Assembly: GCA_035509435.1 (NCBI GenBank)
Contig: DATJLR010000007.1
Location: 65,555 to 129,554 of the forward strand
Direction of reading: 5' to 3'
DNA from: Minisyncoccota bacterium
Lineage (GTDB): Bacteria; Patescibacteriota; Minisyncoccia; UBA6257; 2-01-FULL-56-20
Length of the DNA stretch: 64,000 nucleotides
In this document: one piece after another, positions 4,651 to 62,924 of the stretch
Position numbering within the stretch: the first letter of the stretch is position 1
How the letters are laid out: every line of letters starts with the position of its first letter
Made by a program: the position numbers and the translations under genes
Notes under the pieces: generated by a model
What the model was told of the DNA's origin: nothing
Seen by the model: the letters and a program-made list of their open reading frames with translations, nothing else
Database searches by the model: none

Positions 4651-5646
4651 TCAATAGAGAACGATCCCCATCTTATCTCTCACCACTTCAATGGTTTCAA
4701 CAACGCGAGCGCGAGCTTTTTTGCCTCCTTCGCGCAAGACATCCTTCACATAGTCGTTTTGGTCGGCAAGCTGAGCTCGTTTTTCCTGAAATGGCTCCAA
4801 GATCAACGCAATACTATCGGCCAGCTTGTGCTTGCATGCGACACATGAAATCTGCGCAGCGGAACATGCCTTGCCAATTTCACGGGTTTCCGTTTCCCCG
4901 GCAGTGATAAGTTCGTGTACCGGGTAAACTGACATGCACTTCGTGTAAGGATGGCCCGGATCAGAGGCGCGCAAGCGACTCGGGTCTGTAACTCCCTTCT
5001 TAAGGTAGCGTTCCCGAATGACATCTATTGAGGCATTGATATCGATTGCGTTGTCAGCTTCCGACTTGCCCATCTTTGCCCCATCCAACCCTGGCACTTT
5101 GATCATTTGCTCCATCATGCCCGGGACGACGAAGGTTTCCCCATAACGGTTGTTGAATTTTCTCGCAAGAGCCTGTGCCAGCTCAACATTCGGCACCTGA
5201 TCCTCGCCAACGGGGATAAGCGTAGCCTTTGGCCCAAGGATATCCGCCGCCATAAGCACCGGATAGGTGATTAAGCCAAGCGTAACATTGTCTGGTTGTT
5301 TGCGCACCAGATCCTTGAACGTCGGAATGCGCTGGAGGTCGCCGAGCTGCTGGATCATGCTGAGGTACAGCGAAAGCTCGGATATCTCCGGCACGCTTGA
5401 CTGGGCGTAGATGATTGACCGCTCCGGATCAAGGCCTGCAGCAAGATAATCTTTCACGATTTCGATCAGGTTGCCGCGCAGTTCTTCCGGATCGCTCAAG
5501 GTGGTTAGGGTGTGAAGGTCAGCGATGAAGTAGAGACACGTATTTTTTGGACGCTGAAAATCCACAAAATTACGTACCGCGCCGAGGAAGTTTCCAAAAT
5601 GGAGCCTCCCTGTCGCACGAATTCCGGAAAGCACAACATGGGACAT
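4651..5646 (-). CDS. trpS: Tryptophanyl-tRNA synthetase
   Basis: Real start is the ATG at 5644-5646 (MSHVVLSGIRATGRLHFGNFLGA...). The track ORF reaching 6453 is an antisense read-through across ldcA. HIGH-like HFGN and KMGKS (KMSKS) motifs are present. Confidence 0.9.
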   Translation of the reverse strand: MSHVVLSGIRATGRLHFGNFLGAVRNFVDFQRPKNTCLYFIADLHTLTTLSDPEELRGNLIEIVKDYLAAGLDPERSIIYAQSSVPEISELSLYLSMIQQLGDLQRIPTFKDLVRKQPDNVTLGLITYPVLMAADILGPKATLIPVGEDQVPNVELAQALARKFNNRYGETFVVPGMMEQMIKVPGLDGAKMGKSEADNAIDINASIDVIRERYLKKGVTDPSRLRASDPGHPYTKCMSVYPVHELITAGETETREIGKACSAAQISCVACKHKLADSIALILEPFQEKRAQLADQNDYVKDVLREGGKKARARVVETIEVVRDKMGIVLY

Positions 5647-5763
5647 AACAATCTCCTTTATTGGGATAATCGAAGTCTGTTGTAAAAGAACAACAAACCA
5701 ATGTTCTGCCCATAATATATCAATTAAAATATAATTTGTCCATATTATGATATACTCCAATAA

Positions 5764-6831
5764 ATGCCCTTCCTCCCCCTCCCCAAGCTTCATCCCGGCG
5801 ACAAGGTCGCCATCGTTTCGCCGAGCTTTGCCGCGCCGGGCAAGTGGCCGCACGTGTATGAGCTCGGACGCCAGCGCCTGAAGGAGATCTTTCAGCTTGA
5901 GCCGGTGGAATTTCCCGCGACGGCAAAGCTCGGCGCAAGTGCGGCCGAAAGAGCGAGCGACCTCGTCGCCGCCTTCGAAGACAAAACGATCAGGGCGGTG
6001 ATCGCATCGCTCGGCGGCAATGATCAGGTGACGTACATCAAAAATCTTCCGCCCGAGCCGTTCGTGAACAATCCCAAGCCGTTCTTCGGCTTCAGCGACA
6101 ACACGCATTTCGAAAACTTCCTCTGGCTGCACGGCATCCCGTCGTATTACGGCGCATCGCTCTTTACGCAGTTTGCGATGCAGGGCCGCATGGACCCGTA
6201 TACGATCGGCTATCTTAAACACGCGCTCTTTGACGAAGGCGAGTTCGAGCTCGCGCCGAGCGACACGTTCAATGAAATGGGACTCGACTGGAACGATCCG
6301 GCCAATCTCACAAAAGAGCGCGTATACGAAAAGAATGACGGGTGGTATTGGGATGCGGGCGCAAGCGGCAGCGCGGCATCCAGTGCGCCGGGCACGACAA
6401 GCGGTATCACCTGGGGCGGCTGCGTGGAGTCGATCGACGAGCTCTTGCGCCATGGCATCGCCATCCCCTCTCTCGCTGATTTTGGAAATATCGTCTTACT
6501 CGCCGAAACATCAGAAGAGGTCCCGTCGCCCGATTACGTGTTCCGCGTCTTCCGCGCGCTCGGTGAGCGAGGCATTCTCGCCAGAGTAAAAGCCGTGATC
6601 GTCGGCCGCCCGAAAGCGTGGGAATTCAACCATCAGGCCACGCCGGACGAGCGCCGCGCGTACCGCGAAGCCATGCGCGAGATCGTCCTCCGCGTCGTGC
6701 GGACTTACAATAAAACGATCCCCGTCATCCAGAACTTCAACATCGGCCACACCGACCCGCAGATCGCAATGCCATACGGCCGCACGGTTCGGATAGACAC
6801 GGCTGCGCGGAAGGTGTTCGCGGAATTTTGA
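5764..6831 (+). CDS. ldcA: LD-carboxypeptidase (peptidase S66, LdcA/MccF family)
   Basis: LHPGDKVAIVSPS, GFSDNTHF and the GHTDP catalytic-triad motifs. Confidence 0.8.
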   Translation: MPFLPLPKLHPGDKVAIVSPSFAAPGKWPHVYELGRQRLKEIFQLEPVEFPATAKLGASAAERASDLVAAFEDKTIRAVIASLGGNDQVTYIKNLPPEPFVNNPKPFFGFSDNTHFENFLWLHGIPSYYGASLFTQFAMQGRMDPYTIGYLKHALFDEGEFELAPSDTFNEMGLDWNDPANLTKERVYEKNDGWYWDAGASGSAASSAPGTTSGITWGGCVESIDELLRHGIAIPSLADFGNIVLLAETSEEVPSPDYVFRVFRALGERGILARVKAVIVGRPKAWEFNHQATPDERRAYREAMREIVLRVVRTYNKTIPVIQNFNIGHTDPQIAMPYGRTVRIDTAARKVFAEF

Positions 6832-33182: not shown

Positions 33183-33444
33183 GGCTGGAGCGGGTAAGGG
33201 GAGTCGGACCCCTGTCGTCTGATTGGCAACCAGATGTAATACCGTTATACGATACCCGCTTTTACCGATTCATTATATAGTGCTCCGCGGAAAAATCAAT
33301 CCACGATTCATGTGCTCCCGCGTGGTCTCGGAATTTGAGCGCAGTAATTTTCAACAGTCCCCACAAGCATTTTGAGGATTTTAGAAAATCCATCTTCTCC
33401 TTTCTTATAAAGCACCTCGGTCACTCACTTCCATCGATCACTGA

Positions 33445-33840: not shown

Positions 33841-33906
33841 ATTTCAAATTTTAGCATATTATTCAAAACCGTGACCAAGACCTCTCGGTCTGGTCTCACT
33901 GCCATG

Positions 33907-33978
33907 TGCCCCCGTGAGGAATCGAACCTCAATTACAAGATCCGCAATCTTGCGTCCTATCCGTTGAACGACGAGGGC
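33907..33978 (-). tRNA. tRNA-Arg, anticodon GCG (unusual isoacceptor), 72 nt
   Basis: Manual fold of the minus strand: acceptor GCCCTCG/CGGGGGC, D arm GTTC-AACGGATA-GGAC, anticodon arm CAAGA-TTGCGGA-TCTTG (U33, GCG, G37), variable loop TAAT, T arm TGAGG-TTCGATT-CCTCA, discriminator A. CCA is not encoded. Confidence 0.6.
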
Positions 33979-52494: not shown

Positions 52495-52752
52495 TTAGTC
52501 GGTAATTGCGACTTTAATCTTATTGTCCTTGAATGGCATCTTCGGGTTCCCGTTATACAAATGTGGTCCGAAAATTTCCATCAGCTTCCAGAGCGGAAAA
52601 GATGTCCACCGAGGAGGATTGCCTCTCAAGGCCGCACGAGATCTCAGGGGTGGAACTTGTTCGCCGGTCTTGTCTTTCCACTCTTTCAAGATCTTTAGAC
52701 CGTGATCGGTCAGTTGCACTTTGACGTCATGGTTGGTATTGATGGTTATCAT
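52495..52752 (-). CDS. Small hypothetical protein
   Basis: MITINTNHDVKVQLTDHGLKILKEWKDK... Probable start at 52752. In a low-GC patch. Confidence 0.3.
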   Translation of the reverse strand: MITINTNHDVKVQLTDHGLKILKEWKDKTGEQVPPLRSRAALRGNPPRWTSFPLWKLMEIFGPHLYNGNPKMPFKDNKIKVAITD

Positions 52753-53375
52753 TTCGGTCTCCTTCCGTTGAATGGAACCGTTTGCTTGATCGCCGTTTCT
52801 GATGTCAGTACCATGCATCCCGTTGAAAAAAGATGCGCCGATGCCATGAGAACAAAGATGAACCCAACGCCGAACATCTTTGCAAGATAGCCGCCCGCCA
52901 TCAACGCCAACCCTGCGACTATTCCGGTAATGGCATGGAATCTGCCGATGTGCTCGCCGCGCCTGTCTCCCTCCGTAATATCGGCAAGGAATGATGACTC
53001 TACGGTGGTAAAGCCATTTACCAGCCCGGCGAACAATTGGAGAAAGAACAGCTGTCCCACTGATGAGATCAGGAGGTAGGACAGAGTGATAGCCGCCTTC
53101 GCGAGCCCTTGGGCGACCAGAAACGGTTTACGGCCGAATCGGTCGGAATATCTTCCGGCCACATACGTCACTCCGGCATCCGCAAGAAGCATGATGCCCA
53201 TAGCGACACCAAGGTTTTCCAGGGTGCCACCCTTCTTCTGGATGAACAGAACGAAGAATGGCGCGAAGATCCCGCCGGCGAGCGACAAGATCACTTCCGA
53301 AGTCAAATACAGCTTATAGTTTCTTTTCAAAACCCCGGTCACAACGCCACCTCCGCTCGGTTGAGCTGACGACAT
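52749..53375 (-). CDS. MFS transporter, N-terminal six-helix half only (possibly truncated)
   Basis: 208 aa. Motif A GRYSDRFGRKP between TM2 and TM3. Ends after TM6 with no C-terminal half. Confidence 0.45.
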   Translation of the reverse strand: MSSAQPSGGGVVTGVLKRNYKLYLTSEVILSLAGGIFAPFFVLFIQKKGGTLENLGVAMGIMLLADAGVTYVAGRYSDRFGRKPFLVAQGLAKAAITLSYLLISSVGQLFFLQLFAGLVNGFTTVESSFLADITEGDRRGEHIGRFHAITGIVAGLALMAGGYLAKMFGVGFIFVLMASAHLFSTGCMVLTSETAIKQTVPFNGRRPK

Positions 53376-53483
53376 ACTACCATATAATTATACATATGTC
53401 AATTTCGTTCGAACACCGTCCTACACTGCCCATAAAAATTTTACCTAAATTTAATCGCCCCCGTGCTAGTGTCCTCGCGTGGT

Positions 53484-53553
53484 GGGAGTGGCACGGTGCT
53501 GGATTCGGCTTGCTACCCGAATCCAAGGGGTTCGACTCCCCTCACTTCCACCA
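53484..53553 (+). ncRNA. Aberrant tRNA-like / minimal tmRNA-like element ending in encoded CCA (Ala-like G3:U70)
   Basis: GGGAGTG-GCACGGTGCT-[GGATTCGG-CTTGCTAC-CCGAATCC]-A-[AGGGG-TTCGACT-CCCCT]-CACTTCC-A-CCA. Acceptor stem with a G3:U70 wobble, canonical T arm and loop, no proper D arm. CTGGATTCG matches the conserved tmRNA 5' D-loop analogue. Only 67 nt + CCA. Confidence 0.35.
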
Positions 53554-53665
53554 CCCTTAAGGGTTATTAAATAATGATTAAAAAGAATTTGACGATGGCT
53601 TTGTTTCTGCTACAGTGAAGATACCGGGTAGCAAGCCGAGTTCCAGCACAATGTTGGATTAAACA

Positions 53666-53700
53666 CAAAAGACCCACACGTTCGGGTCTTTTGTGTTTTT
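53666..53700 (+). terminator. Intrinsic terminator (AAAAGACCC-acacgttc-GGGTCTTTT + T-run)
   Basis: The hairpin is followed by gtgtttttt. It lies ~115 nt downstream of the tRNA-like element and directly upstream of the RodZ-like gene. Confidence 0.5.
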
Positions 53701-53726
53701 TGGCGCCAAGCCGTAGAATCAGCTAT

Positions 53727-54476
53727 ATGGCCCCCAACGACCTTCCCTTCGAACAATTCTTTGCGGAAAAGATAAAAGAGCGCGGCGTGACGCTCAAAAA
53801 ACTGTCCGAAATGACCGGCATCGCGCCCACGCACATCGAGAACCTGTTGCGCGGCGACTTTGAGAACATGCCGTCCGCGCCGTACTTCCACGGCTATCTC
53901 CTTCACCTCGGCGACGTGCTCGGCTTTGACGGCGAGGAGTGGTGGCTGAAGTTAAAAGCCGAAGGCGTCATCAAAAATTCCGGCGAGCTCGATACGCTTC
54001 CGCGCAACCGCTTCATCAAGCAGTCGCCGCCGAAATATCTGTGGTGGATCGGCGCGGGCGTGATCGTGCTCATCTATCTCGCCTTCCAGGCGCCGCGCAT
54101 TTTCGGCACGCCGACGATCGCCGTCACCTTCCCCGACGCGAACCCGTACGTGACCGGCTCGAGCACCGTCACATTGACCGGCAGCGTGAGCGGCGCGAAC
54201 TCGCTCTATCTCGTTGGCGCGAACGGCGAACAGGAACAGATCATAGTGGCGCCGGACGGCACTTGGGAGAAGAGCGTCCTCCTTGGTGTCGGGCCAAATC
54301 CCTTCGAGATCTCGGCAAAGAAGTTCCTCGGCGGCACCGCGAACGTGACCGAGCAGATATTCTACCAGCCGGCAGGCGGCACAACGACCACGTCCACGCC
54401 CACCAGCACGCCTACGGGAGCCACCCCGACCGTCCCGGTCACCGGCACGACGACCCTCCAAAGCTCCGGTATTTAA
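53727..54476 (+). CDS. RodZ-like protein (N-terminal XRE HTH, TM segment, Thr/Pro-rich C-terminus)
   Basis: MAPNDLPFEQFFAEKIKERGVTLKKLSEMTGIAPTHIENLLRGDF resembles the RodZ HTH. TM WWIGAGVIVLIYLAF. Start taken at the ATG at 53727 (the track uses an upstream alternative start). Confidence 0.45.
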   Translation: MAPNDLPFEQFFAEKIKERGVTLKKLSEMTGIAPTHIENLLRGDFENMPSAPYFHGYLLHLGDVLGFDGEEWWLKLKAEGVIKNSGELDTLPRNRFIKQSPPKYLWWIGAGVIVLIYLAFQAPRIFGTPTIAVTFPDANPYVTGSSTVTLTGSVSGANSLYLVGANGEQEQIIVAPDGTWEKSVLLGVGPNPFEISAKKFLGGTANVTEQIFYQPAGGTTTTSTPTSTPTGATPTVPVTGTTTLQSSGI

Positions 54477-62786: not shown

Positions 62787-62792
62787 ATTGCG

Positions 62793-62873
62793 GTGCCCGG
62801 GAGAGGACTTGAACCTCTACGCCTTTCGGCACGAGCTCCTAGGGCTCGCGTGTCTGCCATTTCACCACCCGGG
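62793..62873 (-). tRNA. tRNA-Leu, anticodon TAG, 81 nt with long variable arm
   Basis: Minus-strand fold: acceptor GCCCGGG/CCCGGGC, D arm with GG, anticodon arm CGAGC-CCTAGGA-GCTCG, long variable arm, T arm AGAGG-TTCAAGT-CCTCT, discriminator A. Confidence 0.75.
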
Positions 62874-62924
62874 CAACGCGCCGAATATAGCGCTTATGCC
62901 TCATTTTATGCTATTTCCGTCGCT

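Follow-up and report, generated by a model that had tools for sequence, protein, structure and literature searches.

A conserved pair of structured RNAs in Patescibacteria: a proposed alanine-type tRNA mimic and a candidate antisense partner

A window of 64 kb (contig DATJLR010000007.1 of a Minisyncoccota bacterium, 64,000 nt, the whole stretch of DNA that was analysed) carries, upstream of a rodZ-like gene, two small RNA genes in tandem, here called A and B. They form a real, conserved and structured RNA pair with covariation that current annotation tools miss, and the pair combines two known kinds of RNA, a mimic of a tRNA or tRNA-like domain (TLD) and a dedicated antisense small RNA (sRNA). 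That two RNA genes here make up a self-contained module, in which A mimics an alanine-type (Ala-type) tRNA or the TLD of transfer-messenger RNA (tmRNA) and is sequestered by B, is in our judgement an evenly balanced proposition. The initial annotation of the window had picked out a tRNA-like element at 53484-53553 with G3:U70, a T arm, A73 and an encoded CCA. The sequence is as it described, and the element recurs with covariation in at least 21 loci of Paceibacteria, which represent 21 distinct full-length versions of A and lie in at least four gene contexts. These relatives were gathered in two ways, through the neighbourhoods of rodZ-like genes and through structure-based pattern scans of GTDB genomes and metagenome contigs. 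An alignment of 20 distinct family sequences over 231 columns (alignment A1) is the basis of the pair and identity counts given below, and the slid controls repeat the same pair count on A1 with one strand shifted.

RNA A is 70 nt long and reads GGGAGTG-GCACGGTGC-TGGATTCGG-CTTGCTAC-CCGAATCCA-AGGGG-TTCGACT-CCCCT-CACTTCC-A-CCA. Its parts and its upstream region are as follows.

53484-53553, + strand: RNA A, a tRNA-like cloverleaf (sequence, minimum free energy (MFE) fold, covariation)
53484-53490 with 53543-53549, + strand: acceptor stem, 7 bp, GGGAGTG/CACTTCC, with G3:U70 at 53486:53546
53491-53499, + strand: connector or mini D arm, GCACGGTGC, 9 nt, in which GCA-CGG-TGC can make 3 bp
53500-53508 with 53517-53525, + strand: variable hairpin in the anticodon-arm position, 9 bp, TGGATTCGG/CCGAATCCA, with an 8-nt loop at 53509-53516
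53526-53530 with 53538-53542, + strand: T arm, canonical, AGGGG/CCCCT with loop TTCGACT
53550, + strand: discriminator A73
53551-53553, + strand: encoded CCA
53479-53483, + strand: 5' leader GUGGU, complementary to ACCAC at 53550-53554, with near or full invariance in the 20 sequences
53440-53472, + strand: predicted promoter region of A, with a conserved A/T-rich block TTTACCTAAATTTAAT at 53440-53455 and an extended -10 element TGC-TAGTGT at 53464-53472

On its own the 70-mer folds to the cloverleaf (MFE -32 kcal/mol, z -3.25), and the region as a whole (236 nt) folds at -98 kcal/mol (z -7.6), a value that none of 200 shuffles equalled. The hairpin that had been placed at the anticodon position is present, although it has 9 bp and an 8-nt loop where 8 bp had been given. 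A full D arm is indeed missing, as was also proposed, but GCA-CGG-TGC can form a 3-bp miniature of one. The fold is maintained across the family: acceptor pairs 4:69, 5:68 and 6:67 change on both sides in A1, as do four pairs of the hairpin, while the T stem is invariant. Counted together, the cloverleaf and the hairpin and terminator of B have 95.6% of their cells paired, against 45-56% in the slid controls, and 14 pairs change on both sides. The loop in the anticodon position is 8-12 nt long in the family, varies in sequence and covaries with B. A supposed tmRNA-like motif, CUGGAUUCG, lies in the base-paired strand of the hairpin and is replaced in relatives by CTGGACCCG, CGGGATCCT, CGGAACCCT and CGGTACACG; the resemblance is coincidental.

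The Ala-type identity claimed for the element is upheld by the alignment, where G1:C72, G2:C71 and A73 are invariant (20/20), CCA is encoded in 19 of the 20 sequences and position 3:70 is G·U in 19, while its neighbours 4:69, 5:68 and 6:67 vary freely. This lasting wobble amid changing neighbours provides the best argument that selection may act on the Ala identity set. A U stands at position -1 in 18/20. The encoded CCA reflects no genome-wide habit, since it is encoded in only one (tRNA-Gly) of the three tRNA genes of the window (33186-33259, 33906-33978 and 62792-62874), the others being followed by CAT and CCG; with two such genes lacking it, the organism must rely on a CCA-adding enzyme.

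Upstream of A, a TAnnnT hexamer stands exactly 11 nt before G1 in 23 distinct family upstream regions, and the T, A and T at its first, second and sixth positions are kept in about 19-23 of 24 aligned rows (one row being the unrelated L023). This block probably acts as the promoter of A, with a predicted start at about -5 to -3 and hence a leader of 3-5 nt; a consensus promoter scan made no call upstream of A, where the -35 region is weak. Gene B starts 70 nt downstream of A, and the features from the CCA of A onward are the following.

53554-53588, + strand: A/U-rich spacer after CCA, with a small palindrome ACCCTTAAGGGT and a conserved block TTATTAAATAATNATTAAAAG (A1 columns 79-115)
53589-53616, + strand: predicted promoter of B, TTGACG, 16 nt, TACAGT with an upstream TG (consensus scan)
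53621-53700, + strand: RNA B, ~80 nt, with its start predicted at 53621-53623, 2-4 nt before the complementary segment
53625-53648, + strand: 5' antisense seed of B, extendable to 53654, which pairs with A
53642-53648 with 53652-53658, + strand: hairpin of B, 7 bp (fold)
53661-53675 with 53684-53698, + strand: intrinsic terminator of B, a 15-bp stem then a U run (fold, covariation)
53497-53519 with 53625-53648, + strand: segment of A that pairs with B, 23 bp and one bulge (A1 columns 21-43 with 153-176)

Between CCA and the seed of B every member conserves an A/T-rich block, an invariant TTTGAC and a TAnnnT whose fixed T, A and T stand out from variable middle positions. The 16/17-nt stretch from TTTGAC to TAnnnT varies in sequence but never in length (20 sequences), and such a variable spacer of fixed length between invariant hexamers is typical of a promoter, not of an RNA motif. 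The TTATTAAATAATNATTAAAAG block resembles an UP element for promoter B. Folded alone, B reaches -33.9 kcal/mol (z -6.8), with a mostly unstructured 5' seed followed by the hairpin and the terminator, in which seven pairs show compensatory changes in A1. The strong intrinsic terminator reported after an inverted copy is confirmed (stem 53661-53698 and T run). The inverted copy itself, at 53623-53648, is present as well, although it is no remnant and appears instead to be the seed of a separately promoted, co-evolving RNA. The 3' half of B (GUGUUGGAY...ACAAAAGACC terminator hairpin) shows more sequence conservation than a terminator requires. No open reading frame (ORF) is conserved in A, the spacer or B, the 14-codon ATG frame of the window's spacer being absent in relatives, and no tag ORF or resume-codon context in B has a frame conserved in the family. 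With its own predicted promoter and terminator and a covarying complementarity to a target, B has the sequence features of an antisense sRNA.

Covariation also supports the pairing between the two RNAs: in the A:B helix 94.7% of cells are paired, against 23-44% in the slid controls (20 sequences), compensatory changes occur in 13 of the 23 pairs (66 cells), and the covariation score is 0.474 against 0.219 when shuffled. RNAalifold, given no prior, selects this long-range helix. For the pairs that involve the loop of A, pairing with B is the only explanation. RNAduplex lengthens the helix to ~30 bp (A 53491-53519 with B 53625-53654, -51 kcal/mol), and the long duplex pairs the invariant GCAC(GG) of A with the conserved (C)GUG(U) of B. 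Cognate duplexes have a mean of -52 kcal/mol against -37 for non-cognate ones, and forming the A:B heterodimer gains 16.7 kcal/mol over the separate monomers, even in a model which is unable to keep the acceptor stem.

A ~25-bp inverted repeat around a ~105-bp segment with a promoter could also be read as DNA, that is, as an invertible promoter segment (phase variation) or as transposon ends, with the tRNA shape incidental. We consider this highly improbable. The mismatches are strand-biased: G·U pairs in the A:B helix number 52 for the + strand and 17 for the - strand, the + strand is the more stable in 18/20, and this indicates selection on RNA rather than on a DNA inverted repeat; these counts come from per-sequence duplex folding, since the little bias seen in fixed-column counts is an artefact of bulge position. 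Furthermore, the module has one orientation in all of the at least 21 loci, most contexts have no adjacent recombinase or invertase, and one arm of the repeat lies inside the covarying cloverleaf.

The hairpin of A and the A:B duplex are both maintained yet mutually exclusive, which, judged from the alignment, is what a switch looks like. The main rival to such a switch, which we regard as unlikely but as the most serious of the alternatives, is that the A:B complex is a working bipartite RNA in the manner of a two-piece tmRNA, the 3' part of B adding function to an Ala-accepting minihelix. Helices that join split functional RNAs covary freely, as A:B does, and the conservation of the 3' half of B past the needs of a terminator would be accounted for. 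With ~23 bp only, moreover, two 7-nt linkers could span the duplex and the acceptor/T minihelix might in principle survive, as far as geometry tells, although a duplex of the full 30 bp leaves no room for the acceptor/T stack. Base pairing is known to hold two-piece tmRNAs together (PMC11915505); however, the strand topology here is unlike P2 of tmRNA, as the A strand returns to the T arm via 7 nt only, and neither a reading frame nor a resume-codon context is conserved in B. A also keeps its covarying hairpin (four double-change pairs), whose 3' strand is unpaired with B, and this covariation outside A:B implies that a B-free fold is under selection too.

The helix might instead form in cis. 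On this account, to which we give little credence, A, spacer and B make up one ~220-nt RNA or a cis leader, in which the helix guides the processing of A or downstream read-through. The single-strand MFE fold and RNAalifold both choose the long-range helix, and the spacer (53554-53588) has no convincing terminator for A, so that transcripts from promoter A may read through into B. A single transcript does not, however, explain the conserved promoter signature between A and B (TTTGAC, the -10 T/A/T and the fixed spacer length). The gene downstream also varies with context (rodZ-like, the GpsA side, NUDIX or a reverse transcriptase fragment), and inserts like miniature inverted-repeat transposable elements (MITEs) part the terminator of B from rodZ in L001, L003 and L006; the module is therefore not the leader of a particular gene. 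The rodZ-like gene, finally, is preceded by a -10 element of its own, 7 nt upstream of the ATG.

In the two-gene module that we propose, gene A would be transcribed from its own -10 promoter, starting ~3-5 nt before G1, into a 70-nt tRNA mimic whose 12-bp acceptor/T-arm minihelix carries the full Ala set (G1:C72, G2:C71, G3:U70, A73 and CCA). RNase P would cut off the brief leader with its U at -1, trimming or repair would leave CCA at the 3' end, and alanyl-tRNA synthetase (AlaRS) could charge the product, as AlaRS needs the acceptor helix only. Gene B would yield its ~80-nt sRNA from a sigma70-type promoter that is close to consensus and has an A/T-rich block ahead of it. The 5' end of B, which is unstructured and whose sequence complements both the loop of A's hairpin and its 5' strand, would nucleate on that loop and zip to 23-30 bp through the invariant GCACGG connector, opening the hairpin of A and that of B. 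A duplex of this length should exclude the L-shaped fold of A, because its far end is tied to the T arm by only 7 nt, and B would act as an off-switch that works through the unfolding of A, through co-degradation by RNase III, or through both. Free A would most likely be a tRNA or tmRNA-TLD mimic that engages the Ala-tRNA or ribosome-rescue machinery (AlaRS, EF-Tu, SmpB), by analogy with TLD-only molecules, which strongly inhibit tmRNA, perhaps via titration of SmpB (PMC11915505, PMC4131195). A more specific version, in which a chargeable Ala minihelix or TLD mimic interferes with or replaces ribosome rescue or another Ala-tRNA process and is neutralised by B as an RNA-only control module, is possible but distinctly more tentative.

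Several observations weigh against the sequestered-mimic reading. The ends of the transcripts, cleavage by RNase P and charging of A are all predictions from sequence. As A is without its own terminator, much of it may arise as A-spacer-B read-through with the helix then in cis, in which case a role in processing or assembly fits as well as an off-switch does, and from sequence either RNA could be the regulator of the other. Individual members depart from the Ala set or the tRNA pattern: L007 has A3:U70 in place of G3:U70, L001 has CCG in place of CCA, and the T loop is off UUCRANY in 6/20 (CUCGACA, UCCGACU, UUCAUCU and UCCAAUU among the variants). With 5 flanking nt on each side, A folds at -43 kcal/mol (z -5.6) and its end helix becomes 12 bp, GUGGU with ACCAC, so that CCA could be part of a helix and not a free acceptor end. 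This leader pairing shows one-sided changes only, with two C·A mismatches at -1:73 (20 sequences), and covariation thus lends it no support. The TLD signature of tmRNA consists of GG-UUCGAC in the D loop and GAC before the T arm; it is absent from A, which has GCACGGU(U)GC as connector and YCCA ahead of the T arm. Nor does any tmRNA model give A a score beyond its T loop.

RNA A is tRNA-shaped and outside every curated family. ARAGORN called three ordinary tRNAs in the window and none at A, and left the other family members uncalled as well; Rfam at gathering thresholds returned only two tRNAs in the window and assigned A to no family, either there or across 31 related loci. A permissive Rfam scan (E<=10) of 53300-53800 (501 nt) gave mascRNA (RF01684) as the best match, at 22.6 bits against a cut-off of 42.5, followed by tRNA (RF00005) at 20.9 against 29 and the Tymovirus tRNA-like structure at 16.8. 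The permuted tmRNA model RF04321 aligned the 17-nt T loop only (9.9 bits, E 9.2), and the standard (RF00023) and mitochondrial (RF02544) tmRNA models had no match in the same search. The earlier remark that the element fits no known RNA family is accordingly sustained, as all Rfam matches are below cut-offs and ARAGORN is negative. The suggestion of a reduced, mini-tmRNA-like RNA holds for the architecture, which is that of a TLD without coding sequence (CDS), but not for tmRNA models, which score nothing beyond the T loop. We would liken the working of A to that of a TLD or an alanine minihelix, and do not file it as a tmRNA.

With tRNA, A shares the 7-bp acceptor on a 5-bp T stem, the 7-nt T loop, the discriminator, CCA and U at -1, but it lacks nucleotides 8, 9 and 26, a variable region and a conserved anticodon, has a D arm of 3 bp at most and cannot decode. 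With tRNA-Ala and the alanine minihelix it shares the Ala identity set, and the T loop is UUCGACU in most members. With mascRNA and MEN-beta (RF01684) A shares no more than its shape, a compact cloverleaf whose D arm is miniature and whose anticodon arm does not decode; that family is eukaryotic and its members are processed from long non-coding RNAs. Standard tmRNA, which is marked by pseudoknots, differs in that A has neither a covariance match to it nor a tag reading frame with a resume codon. Two-piece (permuted) tmRNA (RF04321, RF01849-51) likewise consists of two RNAs from one locus with a long covarying helix beside a tRNA-like domain; however, A holds both acceptor strands in standard, unpermuted order, there is no coding piece, and B has its own predicted promoter whereas two-piece tmRNAs are cut from a common precursor.

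The closest architecture is that of CDS-less, TLD-only tmRNA, with which A shares a size of 65-70 nt, G3:U70, A73, CCA, a 7-bp acceptor, a canonical T arm, a stem-poor D region, a hairpin at the anticodon-arm position, the lack of a variable loop and of a tag frame, and use as an integration site. A differs in its covariance-model score, in missing the UCGAC/GAC signature and in having a dedicated antisense sRNA. TLD-only forms are known from mycobacteriophage DS6A, from ~65-bp genes of Mallomonadaceae plastids and from jakobid mitochondria ('re-permuted' in Jakoba libera), and no antisense partner for them is described in the same sources (PMC11915505, PMC4131195). CDS-less tmRNA has been recorded in two bacterial groups, one of them Patescibacteria 9FT-COMBO-53-11 sp001772805 ('Standard NoCDS'; PMC11915505), and a full-text literature search on tRNA-like small RNA in Patescibacteria gave no match. 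It is conceivable, though in our view improbable, that A is the reduced, tag-less tmRNA of this clade and replaces ssrA, as in jakobid mitochondria, Mallomonadaceae plastids and 9FT-COMBO-53-11, B being an accessory regulator or maturation factor. A TLD-like architecture with G3:U70, A73 and CCA speaks for this, as do the three CDS-less tmRNAs on record in Patescibacteria (PMC11915505, supplementary table 2). Neither SmpB (tblastn, approximate E. coli query) nor tmRNA (ARAGORN) was found in 342 kb of clade DNA, which is a small part of each genome and does not establish the absence of ssrA and smpB; a Fem-type transferase, SmpB, AlaRS and RNase III were likewise not seen among 25 window ORFs scanned with Pfam nor near the locus. 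However, Patescibacteria generally carry standard tmRNA (5252 in 6765 genomes; PMC11915505), the tmRNA models score nothing past the T loop and the TLD signature is absent. The module is also missing from the ftsK-rodZ spacer of the interleaved relatives L008, L009, L041 and the P0092 contig, where the two genes are 36-98 nt apart, which suits an accessory element better.

As for B, antisense pairs such as CopA/CopT, RNA I/RNA II, Sok/hok and RNA-RNA toxin-antitoxin pairs work in the same general manner, a single-stranded seed meeting a hairpin loop from which a long duplex grows. Those of the CopA/CopT type also resemble A:B in their strong, constitutive-looking promoter and terminator, co-evolving partners and patchy spread. 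They differ in that they overlap on opposite strands and target an mRNA or primer, whereas A and B stand in tandem on one strand and the target is a tRNA mimic; unlike type I toxin-antitoxin systems, A/B has no small toxic ORF. A T-box leader also pairs with the anticodon-arm region of a tRNA-shaped partner, but the A:B pairing is 23-30 bp and not codon-sized, B has no Stem I platform or T-box sequence, and the downstream genes vary. A T-box-like reading of B was rejected, as the seed is followed by UGGA and not by the UGGU required for A73, and there is no antiterminator.

If the proposal of a mimic held in check by B is correct, the RNA-only module would amount to an RNA-toxin/RNA-antitoxin pair, or to a tRNA mimic gated by RNA, that the streamlined genomes of the Candidate Phyla Radiation (CPR) inherit as one unit. 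tRNA mimics and tag-less mini-tmRNAs are otherwise isolated cases (phage, organelles and a few endosymbionts), and the module would be a chromosomally conserved bacterial example whose built-in partner RNA makes the function of a tRNA mimic testable. Standard tRNA and tmRNA finders and Rfam miss this structured RNA family in Patescibacteria, whose translation apparatus is unusual.

The commonest context of the module is between ftsK and rodZ-recA. Among the relatives gathered through rodZ neighbourhoods, a non-coding ftsK-rodZ gap of 300-575 nt holds it in L001, L003, L005, L006, L007 and L042. The pattern scan of GTDB genomes found A in six species representatives, all of them Patescibacteria metagenome-assembled genomes, and the metagenome scan found it on 19 contigs, mostly from peat or bog, whereas neither A nor its 3' end occurs on the viral contigs searched. 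Some pattern matches were dropped: L012, L013, L016 and L019 are antisense strands of Chloroflexota tRNA-Glu genes, L018 is a repeat, and the metagenome match L023 is an unrelated tRNA 3' fragment beside an island-type gene. Each locus has a single copy. In L010/L032 and L036 the A-then-B pair is instead flanked by class II ribonucleotide reductase and GpsA, in L033 by RNase Y and a NUDIX gene, and in L024 it comes after a PMT-family gene; B follows A in every locus that reaches past A, except L027/L040. On this comparison of loci, the module is an inherited unit and an accessory element.

In the exceptions, L027 (646-1842) and L040 (8922-10175), an island with a large serine recombinase (PF07508) and a small helix-turn-helix gene is inserted right after ...CCACCA, leaving A intact and displacing B; both contigs end before the other island boundary. 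Insertion at this point implies that the functional 3' boundary of A is its CCA, and A can apparently act as an attachment site, like tRNA and tmRNA genes, which is relevant to the mapping of serine-recombinase islands in CPR genomes. In both contigs the recombinase ORF continues through the antisense strand of the A gene.

Integration of the tRNA type had in fact been proposed for the window, where the element was read as a possible scar. The idea is right in kind, given the L027/L040 island at the 3' end of A, but not for the window. That the element is what decay has left of a tRNA or tmRNA gene used for integration, and that the inverted copy and a half-gene of the major facilitator superfamily (MFS) are debris, is scarcely credible and, in the light of the alignment, already contradicted by covariation: compensatory substitutions run across genomes whose flanking RodZ-like proteins are 63-80% identical, both RNAs have their own predicted promoters (that of A with its -10 element 11 nt upstream of G1), and the search for attL/attR-like duplicates of the 3' end of A found no second copy of its 3' 27 nt in the 64-kb window. 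What remains in favour of a scar, besides the island in relatives, is the neighbouring MFS gene:

52749-53375, - strand: half-length MFS gene, 208 aa, matching MFS_1 profile positions 6-174 of 347, the N-terminal six-helix half

The gene is half-length, as had been noted, but its link to the element does not stand, as it lies upstream of A's promoter and occurs, among the genomes sampled, only in that of the window. In relatives the slot between ftsK and A holds other small ORFs or nothing, and neither the MFS half-gene nor an overlapping 107-aa ORF has a homologue in any related locus sampled. The half-gene is variable cargo of the window genome, unlinked to the RNA module. The 107-aa ORF is without a Pfam match, and both lie within 52495-53375 (- strand). 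The best promoter-like site of the MFS gene overlaps its annotated ATG, and the gene may therefore be a non-functional remnant.

On the other side of the module, the gene downstream of B (53727-54476) encodes a RodZ-like protein with HTH_25 and Glucodextran_B domains (Pfam). A TAGAAT stands 7 nt before its ATG (53714-53729), which leaves no space for a Shine-Dalgarno sequence, and relatives keep CCGTAGAATCAG or CCGTATCATCAG there; the mRNA is probably leaderless. The inserts between the terminator of B and the rodZ-like gene are ~200 nt long (L001 3786-3990, L003 3786-3975, L006 2795-2975) and absent from the window. They have terminal inverted repeats (AATAAGAAAATAGT... / ...ACTATTTTCTTATT) and a long inner palindrome, leave remnants in L022, L028, L030 and L042, and match no Rfam family at gathering thresholds; in appearance the element looks like a MITE. 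A ~120-nt near-perfect palindrome of unlike sequence lies in L005 (3427-3545), upstream of the module and right after the ftsK stop. In L024 (2280-2693, - strand) a 137-aa reverse transcriptase fragment (RVT_1) directly follows the terminator of B and is perhaps what remains of a terminator-targeting group II intron.

Two further observations concern the tRNA-related genes of the window. A 600-aa protein encoded at 4651-6453 (- strand) has an N-terminal extension of ~270 aa without a Pfam match, followed by a class I Trp/Tyr-tRNA synthetase domain at residues 273-552. The tRNA-Leu(TAG) at 62792-62874 (- strand), which was called by ARAGORN and is absent from the Rfam gathering list, was probably dropped by the fast filters of Rfam and looks like a normal class II tRNA.

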